Notes under the pieces: model-generated
Told to the model about the DNA's origin: nothing
The model's database searches: none
Seen by the model: only the letters and a program-made list of their open reading frames with translations
Made by a program: the position numbers and the translations under genes
Shown here: in pieces, positions 18,478 to 47,581 of the stretch
Layout: each line of letters starts with the position of its first letter
Position numbering within the stretch: position 1 is the first letter of the stretch
Source: Terriglobia bacterium
Lineage (GTDB): Bacteria > Acidobacteriota > Terriglobia > 20CM-2-55-15
DNA: 64,000 bases
Direction: 5' to 3'
Assembly: GCA_965218585.1 (NCBI GenBank)
Contig: CBDCLE010000024.1
Location: 128,001-192,000, forward strand

Positions 18478-18551
<74 letters not shown>

Positions 18552-19810: not shown

Positions 19811-19850
19811 TTAGGGAATCGGCACGAGACGTTTGAGTTCGGTGAACTAG
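19811..19850 (-). pseudogene. Ser/Thr kinase C-terminal stub (FTELKRLVPIP*)
   Basis: Manual translation; homologous to stubs at 21081, 23225, 27298, 30004, 33002/35775. Confidence 0.75.
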
Positions 19851-19896
19851 GTCCGCCCGGGCGCTCATCCCAGCGCACTCCAGGCCGGGCCCCTGG

Positions 19897-20343
19897 CTAC
19901 CTGCCACCCGGGCCAGGGAGTGCGCCAAGCGTCGCCGAGTCCCAGTGCTCCTGGATCAGTCCGTTTTCGACACGTACCATGTCGAACCAGTACACAGGAT
20001 ACGTCCTGCTCGAATCGTCCGGATCCTGCCACTCCTGTTTGAACATGAAGAACACGTACGGCCCGCTGGCGATGGTAATCTCCGGCCGATCCTTCCATTC
20101 GGGCTCGATTGGTTCGGGCTCGCTAAACCTAGCGAAGAATTGGCCCCTCCTTCCCCTCACCGGGCTTACGTCGATTCTCGCGGCCCAATCAACGAAGGCC
20201 TGTCGCCCGTTCTCGGATCTGGGGTTGTGCTGAATGAAGCCAGGTGCCATCGCCTGCTCGGCGAGTTCCAGATGCCCGTACTGCAGAATGTCCTTGAACA
20301 GAACCGTCGCAATTTCGACGTTGCGCTGCTCTTGCGGCGTCAA
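19897..20343 (-). CDS. SnoaL/NTF2-like domain (second domain; possibly a frameshifted continuation of upstream gene)
   Basis: FIQHNP..NGR.AF, FDMVRVENGLIQEHWD. Confidence 0.8.
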   Translation of the reverse strand: MTPQEQRNVEIATVLFKDILQYGHLELAEQAMAPGFIQHNPRSENGRQAFVDWAARIDVSPVRGRRGQFFARFSEPEPIEPEWKDRPEITIASGPYVFFMFKQEWQDPDDSSRTYPVYWFDMVRVENGLIQEHWDSATLGALPGPGGR

Positions 20344-20864
20344 GTCGAGCCTGACGGCGCTGTAGTCGATCCATCAGGAGCACCCCCCATCGGAATCTGT
20401 CGCACCTTCTCGGCATAGTCCCAGTGCTCTTGGATCAGTCCGTTCTCCATGCGCAACAAGTCATACGTGTTGTACGTGTACGTTCTCGACGGCTGGGCCG
20501 CGTCCTCAGTCTCCCGCTCGAACACGAGCACCACGAAGTCGCCCTTGGCGAACGAGGTCACCGGGGGGATTGCCAGTTCTGTGGGCATCGGCTCGAGCGG
20601 AGGATCAAGTGCTGAGAAGAACTGCACGAAGCCATCGCGACCGGTCTGCACGTTGATGTTGTGTTGAATGTAGTCCTCGGCCATGTACTGCGGTGCGAGG
20701 TCAAGGTGCCTCGCTTCGAGCACCTCGCGCCACCAGTCGAGCACGAACTGCAACTTCTGCTGCTCATCAGGCGTCATCGTGCTCGTCTGCGCCGGGAGTG
20801 GAGCGCTTGCTGTGATTAACATAACCACGGCGATCGCGACTCGTCCCGTTGTCAACATGCTCAT
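20340..20864 (-). CDS. Exported SnoaL/NTF2-like protein
   Basis: Signal peptide MSMLTTGRVAIAV..AQ; YIQHN..GRDGF, DLLRMENGLIQEHWD. Confidence 0.82.
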   Translation of the reverse strand: MSMLTTGRVAIAVVMLITASAPLPAQTSTMTPDEQQKLQFVLDWWREVLEARHLDLAPQYMAEDYIQHNINVQTGRDGFVQFFSALDPPLEPMPTELAIPPVTSFAKGDFVVLVFERETEDAAQPSRTYTYNTYDLLRMENGLIQEHWDYAEKVRQIPMGGAPDGSTTAPSGST

Positions 20865-20933
20865 GACTGCAATACCTCCTTTACCCAGGAGTGAGAGGAA
20901 CTCGTAGTAACGTACTTTGGTGCCGGATTCCAT
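20865..20933 (-). pseudogene. Ser/Thr kinase N-terminal stub (MESGTKVRYYEFLSLLGKGG)
   Basis: Resembles kinase subdomain I; homologous to 25705-25777 and 41232-41335. Confidence 0.8.
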
Positions 20934-21036
20934 GTCTCTAATGAGTCGCCGTGAGGAACGGCAGAAATCGGCTAAGTCTATCGAGGTGGAAGCGTTGTTG
21001 GCAAGGGGACGGTCAACCGCCTCGTTTTGGCGAATT

Positions 21037-21072
21037 CTCAACGTCCGGGAAGACGATTTCTCAGGCCTTGAC
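21037..21072 (+). repeat. Cassette-boundary palindrome, site 1
   Basis: CTCA-ACGTCCGGGAA-GACGAT-TTCTCAGGCCT-TGAC. Confidence 0.85.
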
Positions 21073-21135
21073 TCGGGGAATTATTGAGTCGGCACCCGTT
21101 CCTTAGAGCACGTGTCTAAGTACGCAGGCCCATAG

Positions 21136-22603
21136 TACTACTGTGTTACAAAAGGCCTATTTTATGTTAGCATCCGGTCATGAGCGCCAAATCGAAGGCG
21201 CCAGGCACTCAGGAAAAACGTTTTGCGGCCTATTTGGAACGCCTGGCGTCGGCCGCAGGACACGCCGATCGTCATGAACCGTTGAAGTCGTACTGCACCG
21301 GGTTGTTGCTGCCGATCAAACGTAAGAGTGTGGAGCCGATGGCTGCACGATTGGCTCCGGATAATGTACGCCGAATGCACCAGTCGCTACATCATCTGGT
21401 CGCGGATGCGCCCTGGGACGATGCGGCTCTGTTGGCAGAAGTTCGACAGTACGCGCTGGGGGCGATGGAAGCCAACGGTCCGATTGAAGCCTGGATTGTC
21501 GACGACACCGGATTCGTGAAAAAGGGGACCCACTCGGTGGGTGTGGCCCGGCAATACTGTGGACAGGTCGGCAAACCTGAGAACTGCCGGGTGGCGGTGA
21601 GCCTGTCGGTGGCGACAGCGAAATCCAGCTTGCCGGTGGCATGGCGACTCTACCTCCCCGAGACCTGGGCGAAGGATCCGGAACGTCGAAGCAAAGCCGC
21701 TATTCCCGAAGACGTTCGATTTCAAACTAAACCTCAAATTGCTTTGGAACAAATCCGGCAGGCCGTCGATGACGGCATTGCTCCGACACCGGTTCTGGGC
21801 GATACGGCCTACGGCAACAACTACAAGTTCCGGCACGGCATCACCGAACTCGGACTTAGCTACGTCCTAGGGGTGCAAGGCACCACGACCGTGTGGAAAC
21901 CGGGCCAGGGTCCCTTGCCGCCGAAATCCTTGACCGGCCGCGGACGGACACCGACCCGCATGCAGCGCAACAAGAAACATCAACCGGTTTCGGTCAAGCA
22001 ACTGGCCCTCTCGTTGTCTCCCCAGCGTTGGAAGAACGTCTCCTGGCGCGAAGGCACCTCCGAGACCCTGCGTTCCCGTTTCGCCGCAGTTCGCATTCGT
22101 CCCGCTCATCTGGATCACGAGCGCCACTCGCCGCATCCGAAAGAGTGGTTGTTGGTCGAGTGGCCCAAGACCGCATCCGAACCGATCCGGTACTGGCTCT
22201 CCACTCTTGGGGCCCATACCTCGCTTTCCGATCTGGCCGGTCAGGCCAAACAGCGCTGGATCATCGAACGCGACTATCAGGAACTCAAGCAGGAACTCGG
22301 TCTGGGACACTACGAAGGTCGCGGCTGGCGTGGATTTCACCATCATGGCACCTTATGTATTGCCTCTTATGGGTTCCTGGTCGCCGAGCGGAGCCGTTTT
22401 TCCCCCTCTGCATTTGTCGAGCATGTTGGACTATCCGTCCCCAAACTCCCCAAACACTTCAAACCCCGCGGAACCCCGGATCCGGCCCGAACGACATAAC
22501 CCCTGCTCGATTGCCACGCTTCGCATTCGCATCGCCCGCTTCCTGATTCAGCAGCTTCCTCGTTGTCCGTTCTGTGGACCGCTTCGTTTGTAACACAGTA
22601 GTA
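21136..22603 (+). mobile_element. IS701-family element
   Basis: Perfect 17-bp TIR TACTACTGTGTTACAAA; 4-bp TSD ATAG. Confidence 0.93.
21180..22499 (+). CDS. IS701-family transposase
   Basis: RKSVEPMA, DDTGFVKKG.HSVGVARQYCG..GK..NC, RWIIE..YQELKQELGL. Confidence 0.95.
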   Translation: MSAKSKAPGTQEKRFAAYLERLASAAGHADRHEPLKSYCTGLLLPIKRKSVEPMAARLAPDNVRRMHQSLHHLVADAPWDDAALLAEVRQYALGAMEANGPIEAWIVDDTGFVKKGTHSVGVARQYCGQVGKPENCRVAVSLSVATAKSSLPVAWRLYLPETWAKDPERRSKAAIPEDVRFQTKPQIALEQIRQAVDDGIAPTPVLGDTAYGNNYKFRHGITELGLSYVLGVQGTTTVWKPGQGPLPPKSLTGRGRTPTRMQRNKKHQPVSVKQLALSLSPQRWKNVSWREGTSETLRSRFAAVRIRPAHLDHERHSPHPKEWLLVEWPKTASEPIRYWLSTLGAHTSLSDLAGQAKQRWIIERDYQELKQELGLGHYEGRGWRGFHHHGTLCIASYGFLVAERSRFSPSAFVEHVGLSVPKLPKHFKPRGTPDPARTT

Positions 22604-22708
22604 ATAGACGATGCATAGAAAGGTGAGCGACATCAGTTATTCTGAGCTGATTGGCTTTACACACAGCTAACCTTAAGATTACTTTTGGCTCGACAAGGAG
22701 GGAAAGAC

Positions 22709-23133
22709 ATGGCGATTACGTTGCCGGAATCTGTGAAGAAAATCCTACAAGAGCAGATCCACGGGCACATTATTACGTTCAATCCGAAGGGAACGCTACA
22801 GGTCACGTTGGTCTGGCTGGATGTCGATGGGAATGATGTGGTTTTCAATACAGCCGAGGGACGGATCAAACCCAGGAATCTCCGTAACACCCGAGCATAG
22901 TTATCAGCGCCCAGGACCCGAACAACCCCCGCTCTTACATGGTGTTCTATGGCAAGGCAACTGTCAGTGAGGCCGGCGCCGACGAACACATCGACAAGCT
23001 CGCGAAGAAGTTCATGGGTGTTGACAAGTACCCGTTTCGCAAGCCAGACGAGACGCGACTGATCGTGCGAACTGCAGTCGACCGGATAGGCGGCCACGAC
23101 GACACGATGACGCCCTGGCAGAGTAGTCACTGA
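22709..23133 (+). pseudogene. PPOX-class F420-dependent oxidoreductase, frameshifted near 22900
   Basis: QVTLVWLDVDG..VVFNTAEGR.K..NL in one frame; ADEHIDKLAKKFMGVDKYP..R in another. Confidence 0.82.
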
Positions 23134-23180
23134 GCCACCCCAAGCAGTCTAGACGCCGGCGTTTTAGGCGGAAATGAAAC

Positions 23181-23216
23181 GTCAAGGTCCGAGAAGATGA
23201 TTTCTCAGGACTTGAC
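23181..23216 (+). repeat. Cassette-boundary palindrome, site 2
   Basis: GTCA-AGGTCCGAGAA-GATGAT-TTCTCAGGACT-TGAC; followed by minus-strand KERVPVP* stub (23225-23248). Confidence 0.88.
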
Positions 23217-23287
23217 CTCGGAAATCACGGCACGGGCACCCGTTCCTTCGGTGCATCGTTTTGTTAGGCACGTGATGTCTCTTGGAG

Positions 23288-23428
23288 ATGAGCGAAGAGA
23301 ACGCTGAAAAGGCGATTTCGCAGTTCAATGGAAAGGAACTGGATGGCCGGGAACTAACAGTGAACGAAGCCCGACCTCAAACCAATCGCAACAGTGGCGG
23401 AGGTGGCCGAGGCGGAGGACGCTACTAG
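23288..23428 (+). pseudogene. RRM RNA-binding protein, C-terminal half only
   Basis: MSEENAEKAISQFNGKELDGRELTVNEARP..GGGGRGGGRY*; RNP2/RNP1 region absent. Confidence 0.82.
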
Positions 23429-23595
23429 GGGTTCCGCCTAGCGAAAGAGGCAGGGGGGCTGCTTGTTCTACGTGCACCCGTCCCTGCCGCTCACGGATCG
23501 AACGACGAAAGCGATAAAACTCGCTTCCAAACTATCTAAAGTCTCTAACGAAGCGTCATTCGCCTGCTAAACCCGATTGACGTTCTGATGTTTCC

Positions 23596-23811: not shown

Positions 23812-23871
23812 CGTTGGCTACTCTATTTCTCCCGCTGCCCGACTTGCTTGGCAAGGCAGGATCGTTGGGAG

Positions 23872-23907
23872 GTCAACGTCCGACAAGATGATTTATCAGG
23901 ACCTGAG
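23872..23907 (+). repeat. Cassette-boundary palindrome, site 3
   Basis: GTCA-ACGTCCGACAA-GATGAT-TTATCAGGACC-TGAG. Confidence 0.9.
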
Positions 23908-23985
23908 AGTCATTTTTAATGCAGAAGCTGATCCACTTGCCTTTGCAAACTATAAAACGAGGCAGAGAAATGCGCGACGATGTAC

Positions 23986-25704
23986 CTATTGACACACCTC
24001 TTCACTACTTCTCGGAAACCACTCGCCATACGTATCGGCATTGGCACAAGTGATCACGCTGTTGTCTGAGTAGACGATCTTGCCATCCATTATCGTGAGT
24101 ACGGATTTCACATCGCGTAAGTTTCCCAGGTCTTCCATCCCAAAAACATCGTCGGAGAGGACAGCCACATCTGCCAGTTTGCCCTCTTCGATAGACCCCA
24201 GATTTTCCTCATCAAACGAGAACCATGCGTTGTTTATCGTCATCCATCGAATCGCTTCTTCGACGGTCAGAACGTCTTCAAATACTACGGTACCGGTATC
24301 ATCCAGGCCCGTCGTGACGTGATATATCCCGAGCCAAGGGTTAATAATGGCCACGTTGCCACCATCTGATCCCAGGCCAGAATGTACATCGTGTTCGAAC
24401 AAAGCCTTGAAAGGGGGTGGGGCGATGGGCCCTTCGGATGAATACGAGAAGTAAGCCGCGACAGCTCCACCACCGAGAGCTTCGAGCCGGTCCATACTTG
24501 TCGTGGTCAATAGAGGGACATGAGCCAGGTGCCAACGCAGGGCCGTCAGATCTTCGCTTGACGATTCAAAGGCCGTTAAATAACCATCGCTTTCCAACGG
24601 CGACAACGTGTGCTGAAACACAGTTGCGCCGAGACTTGCCGCGAGATTGATCTTAGGGATGTAAGTTTCTTCGTTGACAACGTCCTCTACTGCTGTCGGG
24701 AATCTAACACCCCCACCGTCGATAAATTCGCCGATCGCGTAATTGCGGTACATTGCGTCTCTAGACGTATCGTTGAGGGTGGTGATTTCATTTTCGAGCG
24801 CTTCCAGGCTTGCGCCGCCATATAAACCTCGAACACGCATAACGGCGCCGTTGTCGGCAATCCGCTGAACTTCTGTGCCTCCGTCCGACAGTGACATGGT
24901 CATACCGAGGCTCGCCGCCCAGGCCTGAACACCGAGAACTCCGTCGACTCTATCCTCTTCGGTTTGCTCAGAGCGTAACTGTTGAGCGGCGATGCTGTTA
25001 AAGAAGGCACGGTTGTTCGTGCCCGAGCCAATGTCGACCACACCATCATCGGAAACAGGCAATCCATGAGCGCGGAAGTAATCAATGCCCGTTGAATTGG
25101 TCTGAGTGCCGCCAGTGAATGTGGATTCAAGATAAATCGGATGGTCGAATTGATTCAGCGTCTCAAAGCTTGGTAATGCACCCTCGACAAATTGCCCCGG
25201 GGTAATGGCACCGATTACGGTGACAAAATTGTTCTGTGTACCGACAGTTCCCGCCTCGGGTAGAGGAATATTCTCTACTGTGATCTGTTTCTGCAGGAGG
25301 ACTACCGCCTCATCCCATGATCTTGCGGAATCCATGGCATATACCATGTGCCCCGGCTTGAGGCCGCGTCCGATAACGTGGCTGTGGTTGTCAATGAGCC
25401 CAGGTATTGCCGTACGTCCTGAAAGATCGATTCTGCAATCGCCGTCGACACCAAGTGTCTCTTCATCGCCGTTACTCAAGCCTGCGACGAGATTGTTCTG
25501 TAACCGAACAGACGAGACGACGCTATTGTCGGCATCCATGGTGTGAATCACGCCGTTATAAAGCACTTTTCCGGAGGCTTCGCTGCAAACATCTGCCCAT
25601 CGAACGCCTGCGCCGACGTCCGGGTCGTTACAGGCGCTTGCAGCGAATGAAATAACTACGGCAAAAGCAAACTTGATTGATATTCGGTTGTTTTTCTTGT
25701 TCAC
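23986..25704 (-). CDS. Amidohydrolase-3 family lipoprotein
   Basis: Lipobox ASAC; PGLIDNHSH, GSDG, GSIEEGKLADVAVL. Confidence 0.88.
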   Translation of the reverse strand: MNKKNNRISIKFAFAVVISFAASACNDPDVGAGVRWADVCSEASGKVLYNGVIHTMDADNSVVSSVRLQNNLVAGLSNGDEETLGVDGDCRIDLSGRTAIPGLIDNHSHVIGRGLKPGHMVYAMDSARSWDEAVVLLQKQITVENIPLPEAGTVGTQNNFVTVIGAITPGQFVEGALPSFETLNQFDHPIYLESTFTGGTQTNSTGIDYFRAHGLPVSDDGVVDIGSGTNNRAFFNSIAAQQLRSEQTEEDRVDGVLGVQAWAASLGMTMSLSDGGTEVQRIADNGAVMRVRGLYGGASLEALENEITTLNDTSRDAMYRNYAIGEFIDGGGVRFPTAVEDVVNEETYIPKINLAASLGATVFQHTLSPLESDGYLTAFESSSEDLTALRWHLAHVPLLTTTSMDRLEALGGGAVAAYFSYSSEGPIAPPPFKALFEHDVHSGLGSDGGNVAIINPWLGIYHVTTGLDDTGTVVFEDVLTVEEAIRWMTINNAWFSFDEENLGSIEEGKLADVAVLSDDVFGMEDLGNLRDVKSVLTIMDGKIVYSDNSVITCANADTYGEWFPRSSEEVCQ

Positions 25705-25850
25705 AATCTCCCCCTATGGTGCTTGCGTTTAGGAGGCCCAAGATCTCGTAGTGGCCGAGTTTGGTGCCAGATTCCATCGTTATGGTGTGTCGCTGAAGAA
25801 ACCGTGAAAAACTCGGTAAAGGATACTAAGGGAGGGGTTTGTAAGCAATC
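25705..25850 (-). pseudogene. Ser/Thr kinase promoter plus N-terminal stub (MESGTKLGHYEILGLL, ATG at 25777)
   Basis: ~90 bp closely similar to 41299-41390; candidate promoter TTGCTT-N17-TATCCT. Confidence 0.82.
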
Positions 25851-25863
25851 AGAAGGTCAACGC

Positions 25864-27228
25864 GAGGTCATTACAAAAGGTGTGTAAAAGTCATCAGGCG
25901 GCGGCCTTCGATTTCATCACGACTCTGATGCCGTCAGCGAATTGCTGACCATCATAGACCTCTTGTAAGAGTTCGGATCCTTTTAAGTGTCGCCAAGCCT
26001 TCTCAGCGACACGTAGTAGCTTCCAGATCATTGCCGTTGCATTCTCGACACGCTTGAATCGGCGAGCGGCGTTGGTGCGGAGGCGAACCATGTCGAAAGG
26101 CGATTCGACGATGTTGGTTGTTCTCAGATGCACCCAGTGTTGTTTCGGGAACTCATAGAAAGTAATCATCCGGTCCCAGTCCCGCAACAGCGTCTCACCC
26201 GCTTTGGGATAGTTCTTCTCATATCGGCGGACGAACTGATCCCGCTTTCGTTCGCAGGCCGCGCGGGAGTTCGCGAAGGCCATCCCATGAAGCAGCTGTC
26301 TGGCCGCGGGCTGCTCGGTCTTCGGCAGATGATCGACCACGTTGATCGACTTGTGGTTCCAGCAGCGTTGTTCCTGGCCCTGGGGCTGTTGCTCGGCCAG
26401 CGCGGACCAGATGCCCAGGTGACCGTCCGCGACAGTCAGCCGTCCCAGCTTCAGGCCCCGTCTCTGGAGATTGCGCAGAATGCGGCTCCAGGACTCCTTG
26501 CTTTCCCGCTGCCCGCTCTCACAGGCCAACACCACTTTGCGCCCGTCTGACAAGGCTCCGATGATCACCAGCAATGCCGCTCGCTCTTTCGCGATCCCCG
26601 CTTTCACGTACAAGCCGTCTGCCCACTGGTACACGACCTCGAGGCCGGACAGGTCCTGCTGGACCCACTCGTCATACTCCAACTGCCAGGTCGATTTCAG
26701 TCGTTGGATCGATGCTCGCGACAACGGAGCGCCAGCGCCAAGCAGTCCGCGCATGGCCTGCTCGAAGTCCCCTGTGGCCAGACCGTGGAGGTAGAGATCG
26801 GGAAGTAGCTCGCCCAGCTGTTTCGATTTCCGTCGAAAATACGGCAGGATCTGACTCTCGAACCGCTCGGCGGTGTTTCGAACCCGAGGTCGTCGAACCT
26901 CCATCGTACCGTTCATCATTGCGAAGCGTCGCGGCTTCCCGTGACCGTTCCGGTATCCTCGTCGATTCGGACTCCGCTCCAACTTTTCCCGACCCAGAAA
27001 TTGAGTGACTTCGTCCTCGAGCAGCTCCTGTAGCCAGACTTGGACCCGGGATCGCGCCCAGTCCTCCAAACCTTCATACGCGTTCGTTGACGCCACTGAT
27101 GCCGGTATGTTCTTCTTCTTCATGGGTGGTGTACCTTTCTCCCGATTGCTGCCGGGATTGCTTACGGTTTCGAATTCACCGAAAGCGTACACCGCCTTCT
27201 CTTTTTACACACCGATTGGAACGACCTC
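25864..27228 (-). mobile_element. IS256-family element type A, copy 1 (1365 bp)
   Basis: TIRs GAGGTCATTACAAAAGGTGTGTAAAA / GAGGTCGTTCCAATCGGTGTGTAAAA; 8-bp TSD GTCAACGC. Confidence 0.95.
25894..27123 (-). CDS. IS256-family transposase (type A)
   Basis: YRNG, WADGLY, ADG, QRCWNHK, RTTNIVES; likely start MKKKN. Confidence 0.95.
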   Translation of the reverse strand: MKKKNIPASVASTNAYEGLEDWARSRVQVWLQELLEDEVTQFLGREKLERSPNRRGYRNGHGKPRRFAMMNGTMEVRRPRVRNTAERFESQILPYFRRKSKQLGELLPDLYLHGLATGDFEQAMRGLLGAGAPLSRASIQRLKSTWQLEYDEWVQQDLSGLEVVYQWADGLYVKAGIAKERAALLVIIGALSDGRKVVLACESGQRESKESWSRILRNLQRRGLKLGRLTVADGHLGIWSALAEQQPQGQEQRCWNHKSINVVDHLPKTEQPAARQLLHGMAFANSRAACERKRDQFVRRYEKNYPKAGETLLRDWDRMITFYEFPKQHWVHLRTTNIVESPFDMVRLRTNAARRFKRVENATAMIWKLLRVAEKAWRHLKGSELLQEVYDGQQFADGIRVVMKSKAAA

Positions 27229-27253
27229 GTCAACGCTCGAATTTAGGCCAATT

Positions 27254-27289
27254 CTCAACGTCCGACAAGATGATTTAACAGGACTTGAC
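27254..27289 (+). repeat. Cassette-boundary palindrome, site 4
   Basis: CTCA-ACGTCCGACAA-GATGAT-TTAACAGGACT-TGAC; followed by minus-strand LKELVRLP* stub (27298-27324). Confidence 0.92.
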
Positions 27290-27357
27290 CGGGAAGCTTA
27301 AGGTAGCCGCACCAGTTCCTTAAGTCGCGTTTGGTACGCGGACACCCGGGCGCGATA

Positions 27358-28179: not shown

Positions 28180-28208
28180 TCCGGTAACAGGACTTATCGT
28201 TCCGCGGC

Positions 28209-28244
28209 GTCGAGGTCCGCGAAGATGATTTATCGGGACCTGAG
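28209..28244 (+). repeat. Cassette-boundary palindrome, site 5
   Basis: GTCG-AGGTCCGCGAA-GATGAT-TTATCGGGACC-TGAG then AATCGTTTTCATGGTC, similar to the site 6 flank. Confidence 0.88.
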
Positions 28245-28266
28245 AATCGTTTTCATGGTCATCTAG

Positions 28267-30003: not shown

Positions 30004-30072
30004 CTAGGGCACCGGCACCCGTTCTTTGAGTTCCTCGAACCAATTGAGGACGATGTTGATTTGTGGGCGCGT
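30004..30072 (-). pseudogene. Ser/Thr kinase C-terminal stub (TRPQINIVLNWFEELKERVPVP*)
   Basis: Manual translation; typical terminus of acidobacterial kinase/TolB-propeller proteins. Confidence 0.85.
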
Positions 30073-30104
30073 CACCTCGGCCGTCTGAGCACTGCAGATG
30101 CGTC

Positions 30105-30200
30105 TCAGGCGAGGAAGCTTACGAACATGCTTGCGGCGCGCCCGAAATGGCGGCACTGATCCACCGCGACGACGTATTCGAGCTGTGTGATCGTAGGCAT
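30105..30200 (-). pseudogene. oxyR: Truncated OxyR-like LysR regulator (31 codons)
   Basis: MPTITQLEYVVAVDQCRHFGRAA..; divergent from katG. Confidence 0.75.
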
Positions 30201-30209
30201 GCGATGAAT

Positions 30210-32614
<2,405 letters not shown>

Positions 32615-32727
32615 TAGTGGCAAGGTCTTAGCGAAAGTAGGTGCTCCAGAGCCTCTGAAAGGCGGCTCACGTTGAGCGCCGGGTCAGGGGATGGCATGGA
32701 TAACTTTTCCTGATCTAGAACAACAAT

Positions 32728-32760
32728 AGACGGCGGTATTTACTATGCCGCCGTTTTTGT
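32728..32760 (+). terminator. Intrinsic terminator after katG
   Basis: GACGGCGGTA-loop-TGCCGCCGTT-TTT. Confidence 0.7.
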
Positions 32761-32947
32761 GTGGGCTTCTCGCGCACGCCAGACTTCGCCCATCGAGCCC
32801 TTGCCAAGGGCAGAAACGACGTCATAGTGTGCGAGTTTTGATCCGGGCTGAATCACGTCTAAATAAAACTGCAGAAGGGACTTCGCGTCAATCAGAAGGT
32901 CACATGCCTGGGTTACCGCTTAACCGGACAAGTGGTACGTTCAAATT

Positions 32948-32983
32948 CTCAACGTCCGACAAGATGATTTAACAGGAGTTGAG
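32948..32983 (+). repeat. Cassette-boundary palindrome, site 6
   Basis: (TT)CTCA-ACGTCCGACAA-GATGAT-TTAACAGGAGT-TGAG(AA). Confidence 0.92.
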
Positions 32984-33049
32984 AATCATTTTCATGGTCG
33001 TTTAGGGAACCGCCGAGTTATTGTCAAAAGTGGTGTTTTGCCGATTGAC

Positions 33050-34297
33050 TCAAGCGGCGGCCTGATCGACGTGGGTCACTTCGATTCCATCGTTGAATTT
33101 CACTCCAGTAATCACCTTGGGCAGATCATCGAATCCTCGTAATCGTCGCCAGTTCTTTTGAGCGCACTGTCCCAGTTTGAACATCATGTGCAGCATGCCA
33201 ACCCGCGTCAGGCAACCCCTGGATCGCTTGGTTCGGTGGCGAATGGTAGCAAAAGTCGACTCAATGGGATTGGTCGTTCGGATGCTCTGCCAGTGCTTGG
33301 CCGGGAAGTTGAAGAAGGCCAGCAGTTCTTCTTTGTCTTTCTGGAGGCAGCGAGTGGCTTTCGGATACTTCGGCTCATAGGTTTCAATGAACAGATCGAA
33401 TGCCTTCTCGGCGTCTGCCTGTGTCTGAGCCCGCCAGATCGCGTGCAAAGCCTGTTTCGCCTTCGCCTGGGCCGACTTCGGGAGCCCGTTCAGTACGTTC
33501 ATGGTCTTGTGCATCCAGCAACGTTGGTGACGTGTCTCGGGATAGATTTCCTCCAGTGCGGCCCAGAATCCCATCGCACCGTCTCCGATGGCCAACTTCG
33601 GGATATTCATCCCACGCGACTTCAGCTTTAACAAGACCTCGCGCCAACTCTGTGTCGATTCCCGGACACCGTCTTCGATTGCCAGAAAACGTTTCTCTCC
33701 GCGTTGATTCGCGCCGATCACCACCAGTGCGCACAACTTGGTTTCTTCGGCCCGCAGTCCGCTGTAGATACCGTCGGCCCAGACATAGACCCAGCGATCG
33801 GCATCCAATCGCTCCTCGCATCCCCGGCGGTACTGCTCGGCCCAGACCTGTTTCAACCGCGATACCGTGCTCGCCGACAGGCCCTGCGCCTGGGGTCCGA
33901 CAAGAACTTTTAGAGCGTCACCCATCTCGCCGCTGGAGACGCCTTTCAAATACAACCACGGCACCGCTGCTTCCAGCGATTTCGTTTTCCGAATGTAGGG
34001 AGGTACCAGGGCCGACCGGAACGTTACCGGGTCGCCAGTCTTCGCTCGGACTTTCGGGATCTGGACCGTTACCGGCCCCAAACCGGTCTGCAGTTCACGT
34101 TCAGGCAGATAACCGTTGCGCACCACCCCGGCGTTGCCCGTCTCGGTTCTCCGATCGCCGTGGTGGGATAGCAGTTCCGCCAATTCGGTTTCCACCGCGC
34201 GTTGGATCAGTTGCTGAGCTCCAACTCGTAGTAGCTCTGTTATCGGATCCTCAATCGTCTCTCGACCCTCCGGTCCATTCACGTTACTCTTGCTCAT
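33050..34297 (-). CDS. IS256-family transposase (type B)
   Basis: VRNGY, WADGIY, GDGAMGFW, QRCWMHK, RTTNPIES. Confidence 0.95.
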   Translation of the reverse strand: MSKSNVNGPEGRETIEDPITELLRVGAQQLIQRAVETELAELLSHHGDRRTETGNAGVVRNGYLPERELQTGLGPVTVQIPKVRAKTGDPVTFRSALVPPYIRKTKSLEAAVPWLYLKGVSSGEMGDALKVLVGPQAQGLSASTVSRLKQVWAEQYRRGCEERLDADRWVYVWADGIYSGLRAEETKLCALVVIGANQRGEKRFLAIEDGVRESTQSWREVLLKLKSRGMNIPKLAIGDGAMGFWAALEEIYPETRHQRCWMHKTMNVLNGLPKSAQAKAKQALHAIWRAQTQADAEKAFDLFIETYEPKYPKATRCLQKDKEELLAFFNFPAKHWQSIRTTNPIESTFATIRHRTKRSRGCLTRVGMLHMMFKLGQCAQKNWRRLRGFDDLPKVITGVKFNDGIEVTHVDQAAA

Positions 34298-34355
34298 AGT
34301 GGCGTATCTCCCTTGGTTGCTTTGAAGTCTGGTAAACAACAAATCAACCAGATAG

Positions 34356-35720
34356 GAGGTCATTACAAAAGGTGTGTAAAAGTCATCAGGCGGCGGCCTT
34401 CGATTTCATCACGACTCTGATGCCGTCAGCGAATTGCTGACCATCATAGACCTCTTGTAAGAGTTCGGATCCTTTTAAGTGTCGCCAAGCCTTCTCAGCG
34501 ACACGTAGTAGCTTCCAGATCATTGCCGTTGCATTCTCGACACGCTTGAATCGGCGAGCGGCGTTGGTGCGGAGGCGAACCATGTCGAAGGGCGATTCGA
34601 CGATGTTGGTTGTTCTCAGATGCACCCAGTGTTGTTTCGGGAACTCATAGAAAGTAATCATCCGGTCCCAGTCCCGCAACAGCGTCTCACCCGCTTTGGG
34701 ATAGTTCTTCTCATATCGGCGGACGAACTGATCCCGCTTTCGTTCGCAGGCCGCGCGGGAGTTCGCGAAGGCCATCCCATGAAGCAGCTGTCTGGCCGCG
34801 GGCTGCTCGGTCTTCGGCAGATGATCGACCACGTTGATCGACTTGTGGTTCCAGCAGCGTTGTTCCTGGCCCTGGGGCTGTTGCTCGGCCAGCGCGGACC
34901 AGATGCCCAGGTGACCGTCCGCGACAGTCAGCCGTCCCAGCTTCAGGCCCCGTCTCTGGAGATTGCGCAGAATGCGGCTCCAGGACTCCTTGCTTTCCCG
35001 CTGCCCGCTCTCACAGGCCAACAGCACTTTGCGCCCGTCTGACAAGGCTCCGATGATCACCAGCAATGCCGCTCGCTCTTTCGCGATCCCCGCTTTCACG
35101 TACAAGCCGTCTGCCCACTGGTACACGACCTCGAGGCCGGACAGGTCCTGCTGGACCCACTCGTCATACTCCAACTGCCAGATCGATTTCAGTCGTTGGA
35201 TCGATGCTCGCGACAACGGAGCGCCAGCGCCAAGCAGTCCGCGCATGGCCTGCTCGAAGTCCCCTGTGGCCAGGCCGTGGAGGTAGAGATCGGGAAGTAG
35301 CTCGCCCAGCTGTTTCGATTTCCGTCGAAAATACGGCAGGATCTGACTCTCGAACCGCTCGGCGGTGTTTCGAACCCGAGGTCGTCGAACCTCCATCGTA
35401 CCGTTCATCATTGCGAAGCGTCGCGGTTTCCCGTGACCGTTCCGGTATCCTCGTCGATTCGGACTCCGCTCCGACTTTTCCCGACCCAGAAATTGAGTGA
35501 CTTCGTCCTCGAGCAGCTCCTGTAGCCAGACTTGGACCCGGGATCGCGCCCAGTCCTCCAAACCTTCATACGCGTTCGTTGACGCCACTGATGCCGGTAT
35601 GTTCTTCTTCTTCATGGGTGGTGTACCTTTCTCCCGATTGCTGCCGGGATTGCTTACGGTTTCGAATTCACCGAAAGCGTACACCGCCTTCTCTTTTTAC
35701 ACACCGATTGGAACGACCTC
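34356..35720 (-). mobile_element. IS256-family element type A, copy 2 (nested)
   Basis: Same TIRs as copy 1; duplicated ACCAGATA; transposase 34386-35615. Confidence 0.95.
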
Positions 35721-35774
35721 ACCAGATACGCCGCTCTTCCTCAATCCCTCAAACACCAGATTCGGTTATAACTC

Positions 35775-35869
35775 GGAACCGCCACCCGTTCCGCACTAGC
35801 GGCCATCAGTATTTCTACGATGTCGGCGTGGCCTCGTTCTTCGGCCAAGCCCAGGGCCGTCACCCCCTG
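35775..35869 (-). pseudogene. Ankyrin-repeat fragment fused in frame to kinase-tail stub
   Basis: QGVTALGLAEERGHADIVEILMAAS-AERVAVP*, with the stop at 33002-33004 beyond the IS. Confidence 0.7.
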
Positions 35870-38566
35870 GTAACTAGTATTTCTTCCGGGATTCGATCTT
35901 CGCTAATTTAACAGCTCGTGGCAAACCTGTGCCCCGTTTGCATGCAGGAGTACGGTTGTCAGCCCACCCAGCGTCAATGGCTCCTACCGCCTCGGCGACA
36001 ATGTGACGTCACGCCTCTTCCGGCGTTCCGTTGAAGGCAACCAACGTCATACACCTCAAGCAGCACCCCTCGGGACATCTCGAAGAACCAACTCCTCAAG
36101 AAAAGATCTTAGAAACGATGGGTGTAAACCAACTTGGACGCAAGTTGGCGATCGAAAGTGCTGAGCCCGTCCAGGGGGTCGCTGAGCCAGTTGTGGTTGT
36201 ACACCAGATACAGGTCGTTGCCTGGATTCAGAATCCAGCGGAATCGGGCCTGCCATCCCAGGTTCCGGCTGTCGTTGTCGTACTGGATGATGTCGGCGAA
36301 CGAAATCCAGGGGCTGAACTGAGCGTTCACTTCCCCTCTTAAGGTACTGACCGAGAAGCTGCCCTGAGGCAGTTCGATACGGGTCCATTGGTTGTCCAGG
36401 CCGATGGAGAGCCCGCTGCGTGGCCGGATGGTCAAACGGGGCCCGAAATCGCGGCGCGTTCCGCTGAAGTAATCGCCCCATCTGAACCGTCCGCCGAAAG
36501 AGACGGGCCGCTGGCTACTCGTGTTCCAGAAGGCATCATAGCTGTTGTACCGGTACTGGGTTCCTGCCGGCAGGATCACAGAACCGTTCGGTCCCATCCT
36601 GAAGTCACTCTGAAGCCTCTCGAACTCCCGGAAGATACCGAAACCGAAGAAATCGCCGGTATGAAAGGTCATCTGGAACAGGTCGAAAACGAGCGACTGC
36701 GACAACATAACGTTTCGGCTGTCGTCGGTCTGGTTGAAGCCCACGCTCCATTGGAACTGTCGGATCAGGGGGTGGTTTTCCGGGCGGGGCGAGAGGCGAA
36801 GGAAACTATCGTATTGTTTGATACCCGTCCGGTTGACGAAACCCACGGCCGGATCGAAATTGGCCTGCGTCTCCGTGAAGCCGACCCGCCATCCCACGAG
36901 ATCGTTGTTGGAATTCACCGACGTCCCGTAGCGCGCGCTATTCCCGGTATCGTCCGGATTCGTCGTTGTTACGTAGTGCGAGGTGAGTGAGAGGTTCTTG
37001 TCACCCATGAAGCGCCGCGTGGTCAAGTTAACATCGAATCCCAGCGTCTGCAGTGCGGGTCCAATCGACGCCGGGTCCGCTATCTGGTCTTCACGCGTGC
37101 TTCGCCGTGTGTAGAGCATGCCAAAGTGGGATTCTGTTAGGATGCGGCGCGCACCTCTGAAAACCGTGAAATCCTCCCCAGGCCGAACGCCGTCTTCCCC
37201 AGTACGTACCTGCAGGATACCAATGTCCTGAGCACCGGCCTGCCCGGTCAGCTTGACCCCGTAGTCGACCCTCTGGGGTTGTCCCTCTGTCAGTCCGATC
37301 CGTCGGCTGAAGAACGCGTCACCGAAACCGGACATAGAAAAGAAGTTACTTCCCTCCAGGAAAAAGTTCCGCTTTTCAGGGAATCGAAGAGAAAATCGGG
37401 TCAGGTTGACCTGGCGGTCGTCCACCTCGGTTTCCGCAAAGTCTGTGTTGACCGTGAAGTTGGCCCTGAGGCTGGGCGTCACGTTGTAGATAAAATCGAC
37501 CCCACTGTCTCCTGTATAGGAGGCGTCTGTCCTGTTCCCCGGCGAGGATCGGGCTCGCCCCGTCGCGTAGGGTCTCACATCCAAACCGATGCCCTGACTG
37601 ATTTCCGACATGCCTACGATCAAGCCGGCATTGGACATCCTCCGCAGGCCTCCGCTGGTGCGCCCGAAACCGTTCCAAATGGTTTCCTCGTTCTTTCGCC
37701 GTACTGTTCGTTGGAAATTGATTCCCCACGCCTGCGCGTTCGGATCAAAGTTCAGCGTGCGGAACGGCATTTCGACTTCGATGACCCACCCGATCTCGCT
37801 CCGGCGAACCTCCGCGTCCCAGATTCCGTCCCAGGCGCCGCCTCCACCTCCGCCGAACCCGCCTCCACCTCCACCAGGGAAACCGCCACCTCCACCAGGG
37901 AATCCTCCGCCTCCGAAGAATCCTCCTCCACTGACGAGTTGGTCGCCCATGGCTCCGGAAGGATTCATCTCGAAGAAATACCCGGTCCGTTCGTCCAGGT
38001 AGGTGTCGAAGACCCACATGAATCGGTCGTCGGCGTCCAGGAAGGCATCCCGCTGCATGGTGTTTCCCATGAGCTGGTCGGGTTCGGAGTCGTAGAGGAT
38101 TACCCCCATGTACATATTGTTGTCATTGAAGAGGATGTACACCTCGGTGGGCTCGGTCGCCGCGGCTCCGTTGTCCGGGTCGATCTGGATGAACTCTGTC
38201 GCCGGTTCGGCCCGGCCCCACGAGATTTCATCCAGGCGGCCATCGAGGTTGATGCTTTCGCCCGGCTGGAGTCGCGAGGCGGCCATGACCCGGCGGTCTT
38301 CGAAGCCGTCGAGGCCTTCTTGCGCCTGGACCTGTGATGTTGTCTGTCCGAGAAACACAAGAGTCGCTTTGACAACGTAAAAAGAGCCCACCCCGATCGA
38401 GTAAAAAGGACCCACCCCCCGGGTTAATGGTTTGTAAGTAAATCCGCCGTCGGGGTTGCGGGAAGTGTGGAAGCCGAAAGCTTCCAAGCCGCGGTGGTAA
38501 CGCGCCGGCTTTGCAGCGGGTTTCCACGGTGGCGACACTTTCCACAGCCGCTCGCTCGCGTGTGTT

Positions 38567-39358
38567 TCACGCGGAACCTTGGGCGGACCGGGGTTTCTTC
38601 TTCCGCTTGCCCGCGGCACCGAGACTCTCGGTGAAGCGGATACTTTCCCAATCGAACTGATGAATCGCACAGTGATGGGTCAATCGGTCCAGCAGGGCCG
38701 CGGTCAGGGCGGCATCGCCGAACACGCTGGTCCACTGCGCAAACGGCAGGTTCGACGTCACGATGAGGGAACCCTTTTCGTACCGGTCCGAGAAGACCTG
38801 AAACAGCAACTGGGCGCCCTCGGCCGAGAACGGGATATAGCCGACCTCGTCGACGATGAGCAGCTCGAAGCGGGACAACTTCGCCAGTTGCCGCTTCAAC
38901 TGTCGCTCCTCACGGGACTCGATCAGCGTATTGACCCGCCCCGCGGCCGTGGTGAACCCGACGCGGTAGCCCCTCCGGCAGGCTTCCACGCCCAGCACCG
39001 TCGCGGCGTGGGTCTTGCCGGTGCCGTGCTTGCCCAACAGCACGACGTTCTCGCACCGGGTGATGGTGTCGCACTCGGCATAGTCGCGCACCTGGACCGC
39101 ATCCAGTGCCGGCCACTTGTTCAGGTCGGTCGTTTCCAGGGTTTTCAACCGTGGGAACCGGGCCGTGCGCAACCGGCGCTGGATCTGATTGGCTTGCCGC
39201 TGTTCCAACTCGCGACTGGCCAGAGCCAGCAGAAAGCCGGGGTACCCCTCGCCGGCTTCCTTGGCCTGCCGGCCGTATTCCCGCCAGGCACGGACCATGG
39301 CCGGCAACCGGAGCTGCCGCAATGCGTCGTCCAGGACCACCTCCTGTCCCGGAGTCAT
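38567..39358 (-). CDS. istB: IS21 helper ATPase
   Basis: GKHGTGKTH, LLIVDEVGY, TSNLPF..W, LDRLTHH. Confidence 0.95.
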   Translation of the reverse strand: MTPGQEVVLDDALRQLRLPAMVRAWREYGRQAKEAGEGYPGFLLALASRELEQRQANQIQRRLRTARFPRLKTLETTDLNKWPALDAVQVRDYAECDTITRCENVVLLGKHGTGKTHAATVLGVEACRRGYRVGFTTAAGRVNTLIESREERQLKRQLAKLSRFELLIVDEVGYIPFSAEGAQLLFQVFSDRYEKGSLIVTSNLPFAQWTSVFGDAALTAALLDRLTHHCAIHQFDWESIRFTESLGAAGKRKKKPRSAQGSA

Positions 39359-40884
39359 CGCACACCTCCAGCCAACAGGTCGTATCGATTCAGATCGGTT
39401 CCGGCAATCGCCCGGTCCGTGATCCCGGGCATCAGTCCGGACTCGAGCGGGGCATGGGATCGGGCGGGTGCGTCCTCCCGCATCAGAATGTGCCGCACCG
39501 CTTCCAGTTCGACGCAGTGGGCATCGAGCGCATCCTGGACGGCGGCCGACACCCGGCCCAGATCCCAGTTCTGGTGGAGTTGCAGGATGCTGATGAACTC
39601 CCGGGTGCCCCGGCTGTACCCATGCCGGTCCCGCAACCGCTCCAGCACCGTCTCGTAATGGGCCGGCCACTGGGGCCGCCACTGCCGGATCGGGCGGGCA
39701 CTCTCAAACGAGGCCACCTTCCGCCGGATCAACTCCAGGTAGTGCAACGGATCGGTCCGCCAGTCGCTATGACCGAAGGCGCGGGCATGTTCGGCCACCT
39801 TCTTCTGGTCCGCGTAAAAGCTCACCCGGTCACAGCCGATATGGGCCCAGAGCCGGCGTCCCACATACGCGGTCGGCACCGAGTAGCGGTTCGAATCCAC
39901 CTGGGCGGTCTGGTACCGGCTGATCCGCACGCCCACCACCTTCGTGTTTTCGAATGGCGTCTCGGGCAGCGCCAACAGGCGCTCTTTCTCGACCGCGTGC
40001 CGTTCCCCGATCGTGCGGGCGTCGGCCCGGCCGCCGATCCGGCGCTGCTCGTCGGTCGCGCAGCGTTCCAGCAGCTGCGCGTTCAGTTCCTCGAAGTCGG
40101 CCACCTCGGGAACCGGCACCAGGAAATTCCGGCGTGCGAAACCGACCAGACCCTCGACACCACCTTTCTCCTGGCCCCGGGCCGGATTACAGAACCGCGC
40201 TTCAAAGGTGTAGTGGGCTCGTAACGCCGTGAACCGGTCCTGCTCGATCCGGGCCTTCCCCCTCAGAATCCGCCTCACAGCTGTCTTCAGGTTATCGAAG
40301 ACCACGGCCGGGAATACGCCGCCGTACCAGCCGAACGCCCGGATGTGACCGTCCAGGAACATCGCCTGCCGTTCCCGCGGATACGCCCGCACGAACGACT
40401 TGCCCGAGTACCGGCTCCGCATGCAGAACAGTTTGACCTGAACGTCTTCACCCTTCATCCGGACCCAGCCCGTCCCCCAGTCCACTTCCGCTTCCCGCGC
40501 CTGTTCCGGATCCAGCGGCACCACCGCCCCCGGCCGGTGCCAGCCCAAACGCATCTTCCGCTCCCGTACCCATCGCCGCACCGTCGGCTCGGCTCCGGTG
40601 AACCCATGTTCATCGACCAGGCGCCGCCATACCCGGTGCGCCGTGTGCCGCTGCTTGACCGGCTGCTCCCGATCGGCCCGCAGCCAGCCCTCCACGATCC
40701 CGGCCACCGGGTCCATCACCGGACAGGCCGGCTCCTTCTCCCGCCGATACTTCGGCTCCTGGCCGGCCAATACTTTCCGGACCGTCCGTCTCGTGTGCCC
40801 GGTCTCCCGGGCGATCTGTCGAATGCTTTTCTTGTAAACTCGATGTGCGGTCCTGACCATCTCGTACTGATCCATCCCTAACAA
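39355..40884 (-). CDS. istA: IS21 transposase
   Basis: HTH, VDWG, FDNLKTAV, EKGGVE, NRYSVP. Confidence 0.95.
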   Translation of the reverse strand: MLGMDQYEMVRTAHRVYKKSIRQIARETGHTRRTVRKVLAGQEPKYRREKEPACPVMDPVAGIVEGWLRADREQPVKQRHTAHRVWRRLVDEHGFTGAEPTVRRWVRERKMRLGWHRPGAVVPLDPEQAREAEVDWGTGWVRMKGEDVQVKLFCMRSRYSGKSFVRAYPRERQAMFLDGHIRAFGWYGGVFPAVVFDNLKTAVRRILRGKARIEQDRFTALRAHYTFEARFCNPARGQEKGGVEGLVGFARRNFLVPVPEVADFEELNAQLLERCATDEQRRIGGRADARTIGERHAVEKERLLALPETPFENTKVVGVRISRYQTAQVDSNRYSVPTAYVGRRLWAHIGCDRVSFYADQKKVAEHARAFGHSDWRTDPLHYLELIRRKVASFESARPIRQWRPQWPAHYETVLERLRDRHGYSRGTREFISILQLHQNWDLGRVSAAVQDALDAHCVELEAVRHILMREDAPARSHAPLESGLMPGITDRAIAGTDLNRYDLLAGGVR

Positions 40885-41231
40885 CTCCTTATCCTCCCTC
40901 CGCCATGCCGGTTCATCCAGGCACTCGCCGGGGGAGGCTATCAGGGTGGGTCCTTTTTCCTCGATCAGAACCCCGTTTGGTGGGTCCTTTTTACGTTATC
41001 GAAATCACAAGAGTAAGGAAGAACAGCAGCGGAGCTGTCGGTAGGATTCTTTTCATATCGAGCTAGTAGTCCTCTAAGTCAAACGGTTACCGGAGGCGTA
41101 ATCACATCCCGCGATTGGACGTTCCGGACTGATCGGGGTGAGCAACTCAATTTCTCGGGCGTCAAAGAAACCAGATCATCCTCATCTCAGGTTCGATTCG
41201 AAGAGCGTTCTAAGCTGACGGACGAAGACAC

Positions 41232-41407
41232 TCATTCGATGTTGGCTACTTCACGGGCACGCCTCACCTCTCCCATTCCACCTTTCCCATGCGGCTGAGA
41301 ATCTCGTAATGGCCGAGTTTGGTGCCAGATTCCATGTTCAAGTGTGTCGCTGAAAAAACCGAGAGAAACTCGGTAAAAGATACTAGAGGAGAGAGTTAGT
41401 TGGCATC
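41232..41407 (-). pseudogene. Ser/Thr kinase promoter plus N-terminal stub (MESGTKLGHYEILS../GKGGMGEVRRAR, frameshifted)
   Basis: ATG at 41335; Gly-rich loop GKGGMGEV; homologous to 25742-25832. Confidence 0.88.
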
Positions 41408-41412
41408 CAATT

Positions 41413-41448
41413 CTCAACGCTTGTTAAACGACATTGTCGGACGTTGAG
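41413..41448 (-). repeat. Cassette-boundary palindrome, site 7 (inverted, different spacer)
   Basis: Minus strand: CTCA-ACGTCCGACAA-TGTCGT-TTAACAAGCGT-TGAG. Confidence 0.85.
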
Positions 41449-47580: not shown

Positions 47581-47581
47581 T

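Follow-up and report, generated by a model that had tools for sequence, protein, structure and literature searches.

A 64,000-nt window of a Terriglobia bacterium genome (contig CBDCLE010000024.1, positions 128,001 to 192,000; coordinates below are those of the window unless a contig is named) contains an island of ~23 kb, at 18.5-41.5 kb, in which unrelated accessory genes lie between the truncated ends of genes from one Ser/Thr kinase family and copies of a ~42-bp imperfect palindrome. The explanation we favor, with confidence and doubt in about equal measure, is that illegitimate deletions removed kinase bodies from palindrome-delimited arrays, and that the surviving fusions were kept by promoter capture. 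The genome of the window (G000) is a metagenome-derived assembly of 4.55 Mb in 26 contigs (C1 and so on), 95% complete and with 3.3% contamination; it was compared with four other members of the same genus (G001-G004), of which G001 is assembled in 10 contigs and G003 in 2.

An earlier note on this DNA had named ten stubs as kinase gene termini. All ten are present, and both tblastn and residue scores identify them as true N- and C-termini of a Ser/Thr-kinase/PD40-propeller family, the shorter 3' stubs of the window being assigned by residue score alone. With a near-intact paralogue as query (C2 550261, 848 aa, Pkinase plus PD40), tblastn gave only four N-terminal matches in the window, of 22-30 aa and 57-78% identity and including an alignment of the glycine-rich loop LGKGGMGEV; they lie at 20933-20868 (22 aa), 25777-25712 (22 aa), 41335-41250 (29 aa, one frameshift) and 32853-32764 (30 aa, E 1e-6). 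The same search found no internal kinase remnants in the window. At the last of these positions, before the sixth palindrome, the note had seen a piece of upstream region; the piece is there, but so is the 30-aa N-terminal stub, so that only half had been noticed. Each N-terminal piece is preceded by a conserved leader of ~100 nt, itself preceded by a palindrome, which bears out the proposed shared upstream region (75-88% identity between copies). The 3' stubs hold 7-39 codons of the family C-terminus and stop 3 or 13 nt from a palindrome. This C-terminus (NWFEELKERVPxP) reaches beyond the genus: in 34 of 41 genomes of the class, homologues in frames of ~850-1000 aa align to residues 139-149 of 149. 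By sequence it is thus a genuine, ancient protein end, ancestral to the family.

The palindrome was counted with nhmmer over the whole G000 genome, giving 82 copies at E<1e-4 and 112 at E<=1, clustered in about 15 regions. That the site is repeated beyond chance is confirmed by three matches at three or fewer mismatches, against none in 100 shuffles. Two variants are distinguished by loop sequence: 62 S copies, which are co-oriented with genes and lie at gene 3' ends, 3-80 nt past stop codons, and 20 V copies, which are inverted and have a different loop. Fourteen of the 20 V copies are directly upstream of a kinase leader, with leader or N-terminal homology on the far side. Seven copies lie in the island, at 21032, 23176, 23867, 27249, 28204, 32943 and 41408. 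For comparison between genomes a strict 22-nt pattern was searched in 41 genomes of the class (G000-G004 and 36 others). It matches 43 times in G000, 111 in G001, 68 in G003, 4 in G002 and once in G004, which has degenerate half-copies of the palindrome; in all, eight of the 41 genomes have a match, and outside the genus there is at most one, in three of 36, so that more than four are found only in G000, G001 and G003.

Near-intact kinases flanked on both sides by the palindrome exist in G000, as the idea of an ancestral unit of site, promoter, kinase and site demanded: on C2 the order is V (547317), kinase, S (550117), kinase, S (552963), and on C9 it is S (76130), kinase, S (80337). Each of these kinases is slightly damaged, by a frameshift or by an insertion sequence (IS) of the IS256 type; G001 has the layout V, kinase, S. 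The unit is therefore real, and the C2 array shows it in tandem, with S copies in common between neighboring units. It is more exactly described, however, as an inverted V copy, leader, kinase and direct S copy, and the "promoter" is the leader, whose activity is putative. What does not hold is the further suggestion that the palindrome explains the expansion of the kinase family: kinase-domain counts are 14, 16, 18, 14 and 21 in G000 to G004, where the palindrome pattern matches 43, 111, 68, 4 and 1 times, and since the two do not track each other the palindrome does not account for the expansion.

The locus of the island varies between relatives: its equivalent in G003 is an empty site, with the tRNA and GNAT genes ~130 bp apart, and in G002 and G004 it holds 3-5 kb of other, palindrome-free DNA. 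In G001 the order is GNAT gene, a 50-nt repeat of the tRNA 3' half, a second GNAT gene, V copy, leader, kinase and S copy. This kinase is near-intact (one in-frame stop, hence two open reading frames, ORFs), and the whole gene occupies the position at which the window has the 29-codon stub at 41335.

Array content was read from 150 of 198 ORFs selected in 18 palindrome-rich regions, 48 having been dropped (mostly outside arrays or in the last loci). The modules hold amidohydrolases, methyltransferases, a glyoxalase, metallo-beta-lactamase-fold proteins, a molybdenum oxidoreductase, cupins, an esterase, ankyrin proteins and an outer-membrane barrel, together with kinases and many transposases. 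DUF6152 is strikingly frequent, at nine of the 150 ORFs (loci L007, L009, L013, L016, L019 and L020; contigs C1, C2, C4, C11, C14 and C16). Among 17 kinase-type N-termini in G000, five open frames of at least 398 codons, one is cut by an IS and 11 are short. A 3' stub was called at an S copy when at least 4 of 13 residues scored, a level that one of 20 V copies reaches as control; 25 S copies qualify, and only two of the 25 close a frame of at least 400 codons. Copies of a 131-nt probe (leader plus 23 codons) number 21 in G000, 26 in G004, 16 in G002 and at least 40 in each of G001 and G003, against only 14-21 kinase-domain matches per genome. Twenty loci of the relatives were fetched from probe matches, picked for an early end of the match, and a start was found in 15: 13 are stubs broken after codons 10-25 (in G001, G003 and G004), one is an intact divergent kinase and one a frameshifted kinase. 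Leader plus stub before unrelated genes is thus genus-wide.

Such modules might be read as the earlier note read them, with palindrome-leader-kinase-palindrome as a dedicated shell, a non-autonomous mobile or expression platform whose interior is replaced by captured genes and whose ends are both kept because both are needed, much as in Pack-MULEs or an integron without integrase. We consider this decidedly unlikely. It does draw on real features: four modules have two stubs around a complete foreign gene or pair (the SnoaL pair, KatG, a CDO-like gene at C2 105167-103733, and DUF5916), all 12 non-IS 5' breaks in G000 fall within the first 57 of ~850 codons, the V and S copies are inverted terminal copies around the unit, and cargo is patchy in distribution and unusually similar between genomes. 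Yet the two ends behave independently. When modules were read by eye, five of the 10 with a 5' stub in G000 also bore a 3' stub, no more than is seen for S copies overall (25 of 62 by score, 30 of 62 when five seen by eye are added), and there is thus no association of 5' and 3' stubs per module.

The ends of one and the same cargo, moreover, differ from genome to genome. Between G000 and G003 the amidohydrolase shares 93-96% identity, with homology limited to the stretch from the ribosome-binding site to 17 nt past the stop codon (25715-23964). The G000 gene has a 16-codon 5' stub 25 nt before its start and keeps a native 3' untranslated region (UTR) shared with a C14 paralogue; in G003 the native 5' region runs on farther before an IS21 is reached, and a 22-codon 3' stub takes the place of the distal UTR. 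With the stub at different ends in the two genomes, the two ends must have been acquired separately. Likewise the glyoxalase gene of G001, an IS91-like insertion aside, directly follows an S copy, whereas in G000 the same 30-nt leader of that gene comes after a decayed V remnant, a kinase leader and a stub of ~30 codons. Homology between cargo copies (amidohydrolase, glyoxalase and the 3' side of PCMT) ends 8-60 nt from the ORF and so short of the palindrome; on the 5' side of PCMT it runs into the palindrome.

Nor are the break points fixed. They fall in codons 10-57 at the 5' end and 2-39 at the 3' end, those of G000 at the 5' end being after codons 15, 15, 15, 16, 16, 19, 20, 29, 30, ~30, 34 and 57. 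Two junctions have microhomology of 6-8 nt: the glyoxalase junction shares CGACAC with the kinase sequence, and the KatG terminator and the 30-codon stub (32764-32853) both read ACACAAAA where they meet. Variable break points and microhomology together point to illegitimate recombination rather than a defined capture site. As for a transposon of the kind of a miniature inverted-repeat transposable element or Pack-MULE, the inverted V and S copies are there, and no target duplication was seen around the single clean V-to-S unit inspected (in G001). The arrays of G000 have no linked transposase or recombinase. Independent ends, cargo with differing stubs and variable breaks thus leave the claim that the kinase was reused as a unit for gene capture unsupported. 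A related idea, that the palindrome pair, the kinase leader and the first and last kinase codons make up a genus-specific expression and exchange platform in which foreign genes, cut back to the coding sequence, are slotted between kinase ends, expressed from the leader and exchanged through the repeated ends or palindromes without an integron integrase, we hold to be quite improbable.

Under the deletion reading, the stubs are left from members of the kinase family, each framed as V copy, ~100-nt leader, kinase and S copy, which are interspersed with ordinary accessory genes in co-oriented, palindrome-delimited arrays. Kinase bodies would have been lost repeatedly through illegitimate, partly microhomology-mediated deletion (in G000 also through IS breakage), and the DNA beside the junction between modules would have persisted. 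On the 5' side this would leave the leader and 10-57 codons abutting the ribosome-binding site of the next intact gene, which would then be read from the kinase upstream region, that is, by promoter capture; on the 3' side 2-39 codons would stay joined to the S palindrome. Fusions at the two ends are separate events and not one shell. Deletion as the main route would explain why the two ends are independent and the breaks variable, why there are microhomologies, and why G001 has a whole kinase and many other kinases are broken, and selection for expression is the probable reason why only short 5' stubs survive. At L041, L044, L053 and the window stub at 20933 a Shine-Dalgarno motif and start codon follow within 30 nt of the break; for several of the relatives' stubs it is a signal-peptide gene that begins there, behind its Shine-Dalgarno motif, and the L049 stub continues in frame into a lipoprotein signal peptide. 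Junctions L039/L057 and L040/L050 are each common to different species, so fusions persist.

Several observations weigh against this reading. Random deletion should leave long 5' fragments and empty shells (a 5' stub joined to a 3' stub), and none of either was found in G000; the sole empty-shell candidate, after the stub at 41335, is marginal, since nhmmer finds nothing there at E<=10 and, of 300 shuffles, 3-11 equal its local alignment score with five of the references and 84 with a sixth. To account for such short stubs one must therefore assume something more, either selection or a hot spot of breakage; in the relatives, their shortness is partly a product of how loci were picked, by early match end. 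KatG is inverted inside its stub pair and lies outside palindrome arrays in G003 and G002 (87-88% identity to the copies there), so it must have come by insertion or rearrangement, not by deletion. Cargo is 87-96% identical between genomes where the core flanks of the island are 79-80% (to G001 and G003), which points to an exchange of cargo beyond the scope of a deletion model. Finally, no sigma-70 consensus promoter was seen in the two leaders scanned.

The missing long fragments, the inverted KatG and the identity of the cargo keep two rivals alive: the capture shell, already discussed, and copying of the junction. On the latter account the block of 3' stub, S copy, V copy where present, leader and 5' stub would be mobile or copied between palindromes, in effect a mobile promoter that pastes kinase ends beside cargo. 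One end of the block would be fixed at the palindrome while the other joins illegitimately, as in homology-facilitated illegitimate recombination or in copying akin to conversion. This is possible, if rather unlikely. Retention to the left of S copies is indeed graded, from a linker of ~12 nt only through the stop codon to 2-3, 5, 7, 9, 13 and 19-39 codons. In G003 the 22-codon stub and linker replace the distal amidohydrolase 3' UTR beside an S copy where G000 keeps the native one, and in G000 a stretch of ~270 nt, made up of V remnant, leader and stub, separates an S copy from the 30-nt glyoxalase leader that in G001 directly follows S. The stubs, too, are little more decayed than intact paralogues (80-88% vs 75-86% identity). 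A single deletion, in an array where a kinase used to stand, nevertheless accounts equally well for each of these comparisons. No donor and recipient sharing a near-identical tract came to light, and leader plus stub is also present in G002 and G004 (16 and 26 copies), two genomes with few or degenerate palindromes (pattern matches 4 and 1).

An artefact of assembly, with chimeric joins at the repeats of a metagenome-derived genome, deserves almost no credence. The number of contigs and the contamination of G000 would allow it, and a KatG fragment on C1 joined to the interior of a transposase gene looks like a chimera. The same stub architectures nevertheless recur in G001 and G003, with their fewer contigs, two junctions are, as noted, common to different species, and the stub junctions lie in unique sequence within one long contig. 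The C1 fragment (35512-37192) is a partial KatG, 97% identical to that of the window, that runs directly into the middle of an IS256-family transposase gene, with an identical copy of the IS1380 element close by, and may be either a real rearrangement or an assembly chimera.

Two further ideas were dropped. Shared insertion of an IS256-like element had seemed a proof of orthology between G000 and G001, but what the two genomes have in common is the IS end (54 nt), inserted at different sites. Cargo trimmed like mRNA could have meant retro-copies; only KatG has transcript-like ends, however, and other cargo ends 8-17 nt past the stop codon. The 13 reverse transcriptase matches in G000 include none at a palindrome. 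Five are near-identical group II introns of ~2.17 kb (5' GTGCG, 451-aa reverse transcriptase), for example at C1:60789-62958, C4:43156-45325 and C10:156262-158431, again none at a palindrome.

The island is bordered on the left by tRNA-Arg(TCG) (18478-18551, plus strand; ARAGORN and Rfam) and on the right by the GNAT gene (41678-42559). Its complete non-IS genes, assigned with Pfam, are two SnoaL-like genes, the amidohydrolase and KatG; a DUF5916 gene is split by IS21, and two more ORFs have no family match. All are on the minus strand except KatG. The eight IS copies are IS5-like, IS701-like, two IS256, an IS256-like element (holding one nested IS256), an IS1380-family element, IS21 and the remnant of an IS91-like end.

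Features are on the minus strand unless stated, and each 3' stub ends in its stop codon. The leftmost 3' stub, FTELKRLVPIP (19811-19846, by sequence reading), is followed by a type-2 linker and a degenerate palindrome. The SnoaL-like pair (19897-20867; Pfam SnoaL/SnoaL_2) has no DNA match at E<=1e-20 in G001-G004. Before it stand a 5' stub of 20 codons, MESGTKVRYYEFLSLLGKGG (20874-20933), whose GKGG codons read AAAGGAGGT, 9 nt upstream of the SnoaL ATG, the leader (20934-21031) and the S copy of site 1 (21032-21077; nhmmer E 2e-11), with the 3' stub KERVPTQ at 21081-21104. Beyond an IS701-like element (DDE_5; 21133-22606, plus strand) with 20-bp inverted repeats come the S copy of site 2 with the 3' stub KERVPVP (23225), together at 23176-23248, and the stub-free S copy of site 3 (23867-23912), to within ~12 nt of which the native amidohydrolase 3' UTR reaches. 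The amidohydrolase gene (23986-25704; Pfam) is preceded by its 16-codon 5' stub (25730-25777) and conserved leader (25778-25863), a segment of 25730-25863 in all; an IS256 (25864-27228) sits inside the leader region with an 8-bp duplication, GTCAACGC. The S copy of site 4 follows with the 3' stub LKELVRLP (27298), together at 27249-27324.

Between the S copy of site 5 (28204-28249) and the stop codon of a 3' stub an IS1380-family element (28262-30007; Pfam) has inserted; it has an identical copy on C1 and an end sequence in common with a copy on C15. That stub, placed by the note at 30004, is a kinase C-terminus as claimed but longer than thought, with 29-39 codons at 30007-30123 ending in QINIVLNWFEELKERVPVP (tblastn E 5e-8 and 4e-6 against two intact C-termini). 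The KatG segment (30387-32758, plus strand), inverted relative to the array, ends directly after its own terminator and abuts a 30-codon 5' stub (32764-32853) whose start codon has mutated to ATT. Beside the S copy of site 6 (32943-32988) lies the IS91-like end remnant (32910-32942). ERVAVP, reported at 33002 and 35775, is a single stub, (A)ERVAVP, split by the IS256-like element (33015-35774; nested IS256 at 34356-35720) with a 9-bp duplication, GGCGGTTCC. The DUF5916 gene (36109-41055; Pfam) has its signal-peptide region split by IS21 (38394-41001; inverted repeats, by sequence reading). A frameshifted 29-codon 5' stub (41250-41335) with its leader (the two spanning 41250-41407) then leads to the inverted V copy of site 7 (41408-41453, plus strand), the right end of the array.

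A tRNA-like 3' fragment near the GNAT gene, at the far end of the island, suggests that the island once integrated into the tRNA gene. In G001 it is the 50-nt repeat, 96% identical to tRNA-Arg (L037 1133-1181), and its window counterpart is weaker (41645-41672, a 17/20 match to the T-arm). No integrase is left in the window. Farther right, a second tRNA gene, tRNA-Arg(CCG) (47229-47303), precedes a piece of a phage-type integrase C-terminus, 75 aa long (47473-47610; a weak match of 22 bits), and an IS256-family element, and this region, to 48909, may be the remnant of another integrated element. A PilQ-like secretin is present as two overlapping ORFs (STN/Secretin_N, 52699-53280; Secretin, 53277-53903), which may reflect a frameshift.

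The runs of co-oriented, diverse genes, spaced at 0.5-3.5 kb and each followed by a palindrome with arms TCTCAAC ... GTTGAGA, also recall integron cassettes. Arrays of this type without a nearby integrase, with attC-like palindromes and the kinase stubs as incidental debris, are in our view very improbable. Full integron integrases are encoded in G001 and G003 (TIGR02249, 440 and 445 bits; cut-off 265), but no palindrome copy lies within 20 kb of either intI, and nothing in G000, at its 95% completeness, exceeds the cut-off (best 84 bits). The genes are at G003 C2:3040327-3041268 and G001 C9:714608-715549, and the 14-20 kb around them are free of repeat arrays; a second copy in G003, near C2:200258-202639, is broken. 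According to PMC2727003, attC sites have an unpaired central spacer and two or three extrahelical bases on the R''-L'' arm. In an alignment of 55 copies the palindrome has no central spacer and its stems are separated by a single unpaired base per arm. It thus departs from attC in three respects, namely an adjacent integrase, the spacer and extrahelical bases, and a cassette boundary at the site, for cargo homology ends short of the palindromes on the sides examined.

In the same alignment, stem cells are paired in 78.8% of cases, against 30-42% with the partner slid. A selected hairpin is not borne out, since shuffling alone yields the covariation score in 42 of 500 cases and the paired fraction in 77, and compensatory variation in the stems, which would have suited an integron, is therefore not above the shuffle control. 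Single copies fold with z from +0.16 to -2.5; an extended palindrome between 3' stub and leader reaches only -2.05. No conserved RNA structure was seen in the leader, which has three invariant pairs, and no Rfam family matches palindrome or leader.

Pairs of an S and a V copy joined by conserved spacers of 20 nt or ~100 nt occur at C9 71182, C11 3378, C24 213548, C2 96131 and C2 547169/547317. The ~100-nt spacer (...GGCGAGCTTCGAG...CATTGAAACAATG.GAGATA...), which has no open frame, lies between S and V copies or beyond V copies, in G000 at C2 547215-547317, C9 66594+, C9 142304+ and C4 202366+. An IS91-like element of G001 (C1; L005 6856-9700) encodes a 293-aa tyrosine recombinase and a 394-aa Y2 transposase; several of its six to eight near-identical G001 copies directly follow a palindrome copy, its end remnant is that at 32910-32942 of the window, and the palindrome appears to be its preferred target. 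The multi-copy tyrosine recombinase near G001 palindromes was considered as a palindrome recombinase, but it belongs to this element and is not in G000. A link to REP-associated tyrosine transposases (RAYTs; REP, repetitive extragenic palindrome) was likewise discarded: the two Y1 genes of G000 are flanked by other repeats.

These arrays bear on two open questions, by what route accessory genes enter a new regulatory context and what gives rise to gene cassettes. The lineage offers dozens of dated natural experiments in which one donor family has supplied unrelated genes with its upstream region and a few codons, with close relatives in different states (empty site, whole kinase, stub). Should the fusions be expressed, they would be a clear and countable case of promoter capture in soil Acidobacteriota; should recombination prove to act at the palindromes, the arrays would be a counterpart of integrons that needs no integrase; and if the platform reading were true, this would be a second, independently evolved cassette system. 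A search of open-access full text found no description of kinase-end stubs around cargo in Acidobacteriota.

Set beside known systems, the remnants resemble the erosion of pseudogenes by deletional bias, an idea reportedly due to Mira, Ochman and Moran (2001): gene bodies are lost, remnants persist beside functional neighbors, and the host is rich in IS. They differ in being strikingly uniform in position (the first 10-57 and last 2-39 codons) and in the conservation of some of them between species, suggestive of something beyond neutral decay. The arrays resemble integron cassette arrays without integrase, for which Cury and colleagues are said to have used the name CALIN in 2016, in their runs of co-oriented, unrelated genes each followed by a conserved palindrome and in a content that is patchy between close relatives. 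They are unlike CALINs in lacking the hallmarks of attC, in that the integrases of the genus are unlinked to the arrays, and in cargo homology that stops short of the palindromes.

Closer parallels are found in putative mobile promoters (Nijveen, Matus-Garcia & van Passel 2012, PMC3575422). As there, a highly similar upstream region, in this genus ~100 nt long and 75-90% identical, stands in many copies per genome before unrelated genes, and identity of at least 80% over at least 50 nt, the criterion for that class, is seen for leader plus stub before SnoaL, amidohydrolase, glyoxalase, CDO-like and signal-peptide genes. The filter of that study, by its authors' account, excluded similarity reaching into the first codons of the donor gene, which is the case here. 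Unlike mobile promoters, the fusions have an identifiable donor (one kinase family), keep 10-57 of its codons and are tied to a pair of palindromes; promoter activity is putative here.

For the palindrome, the closest described kind is the REP, with its composite form, the bacterial interspersed mosaic element (BIME). In Di Nocera et al. (2013, PMC3733652), CGTC-tagged REPs form a class that is also without a dedicated tyrosine transposase. To these our repeat compares as a short, extragenic, imperfect palindrome of about 80-110 copies lying after genes, with two variants in opposite orientation joined by conserved spacers of 20 nt or ~100 nt, with CGTC beside the inner stem, no linked tyrosine transposase and a role as preferred IS target. 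High copy number and alternating orientation with linkers are thus found, but dispersal and association with a RAYT are not. The repeat also differs in its 42 bp with a longer outer stem, in its confinement to about 15 accessory-gene clusters, in being strictly co-oriented with genes and in its physical coupling to the ends of one gene family. What the earlier note observed is confirmed and its interpretation supported in part, with a modest chance of a real capture platform; the arrays are best seen as a variant of promoter capture plus a REP-like repeat family, unusual in that the donor is known and that donor codons are retained.

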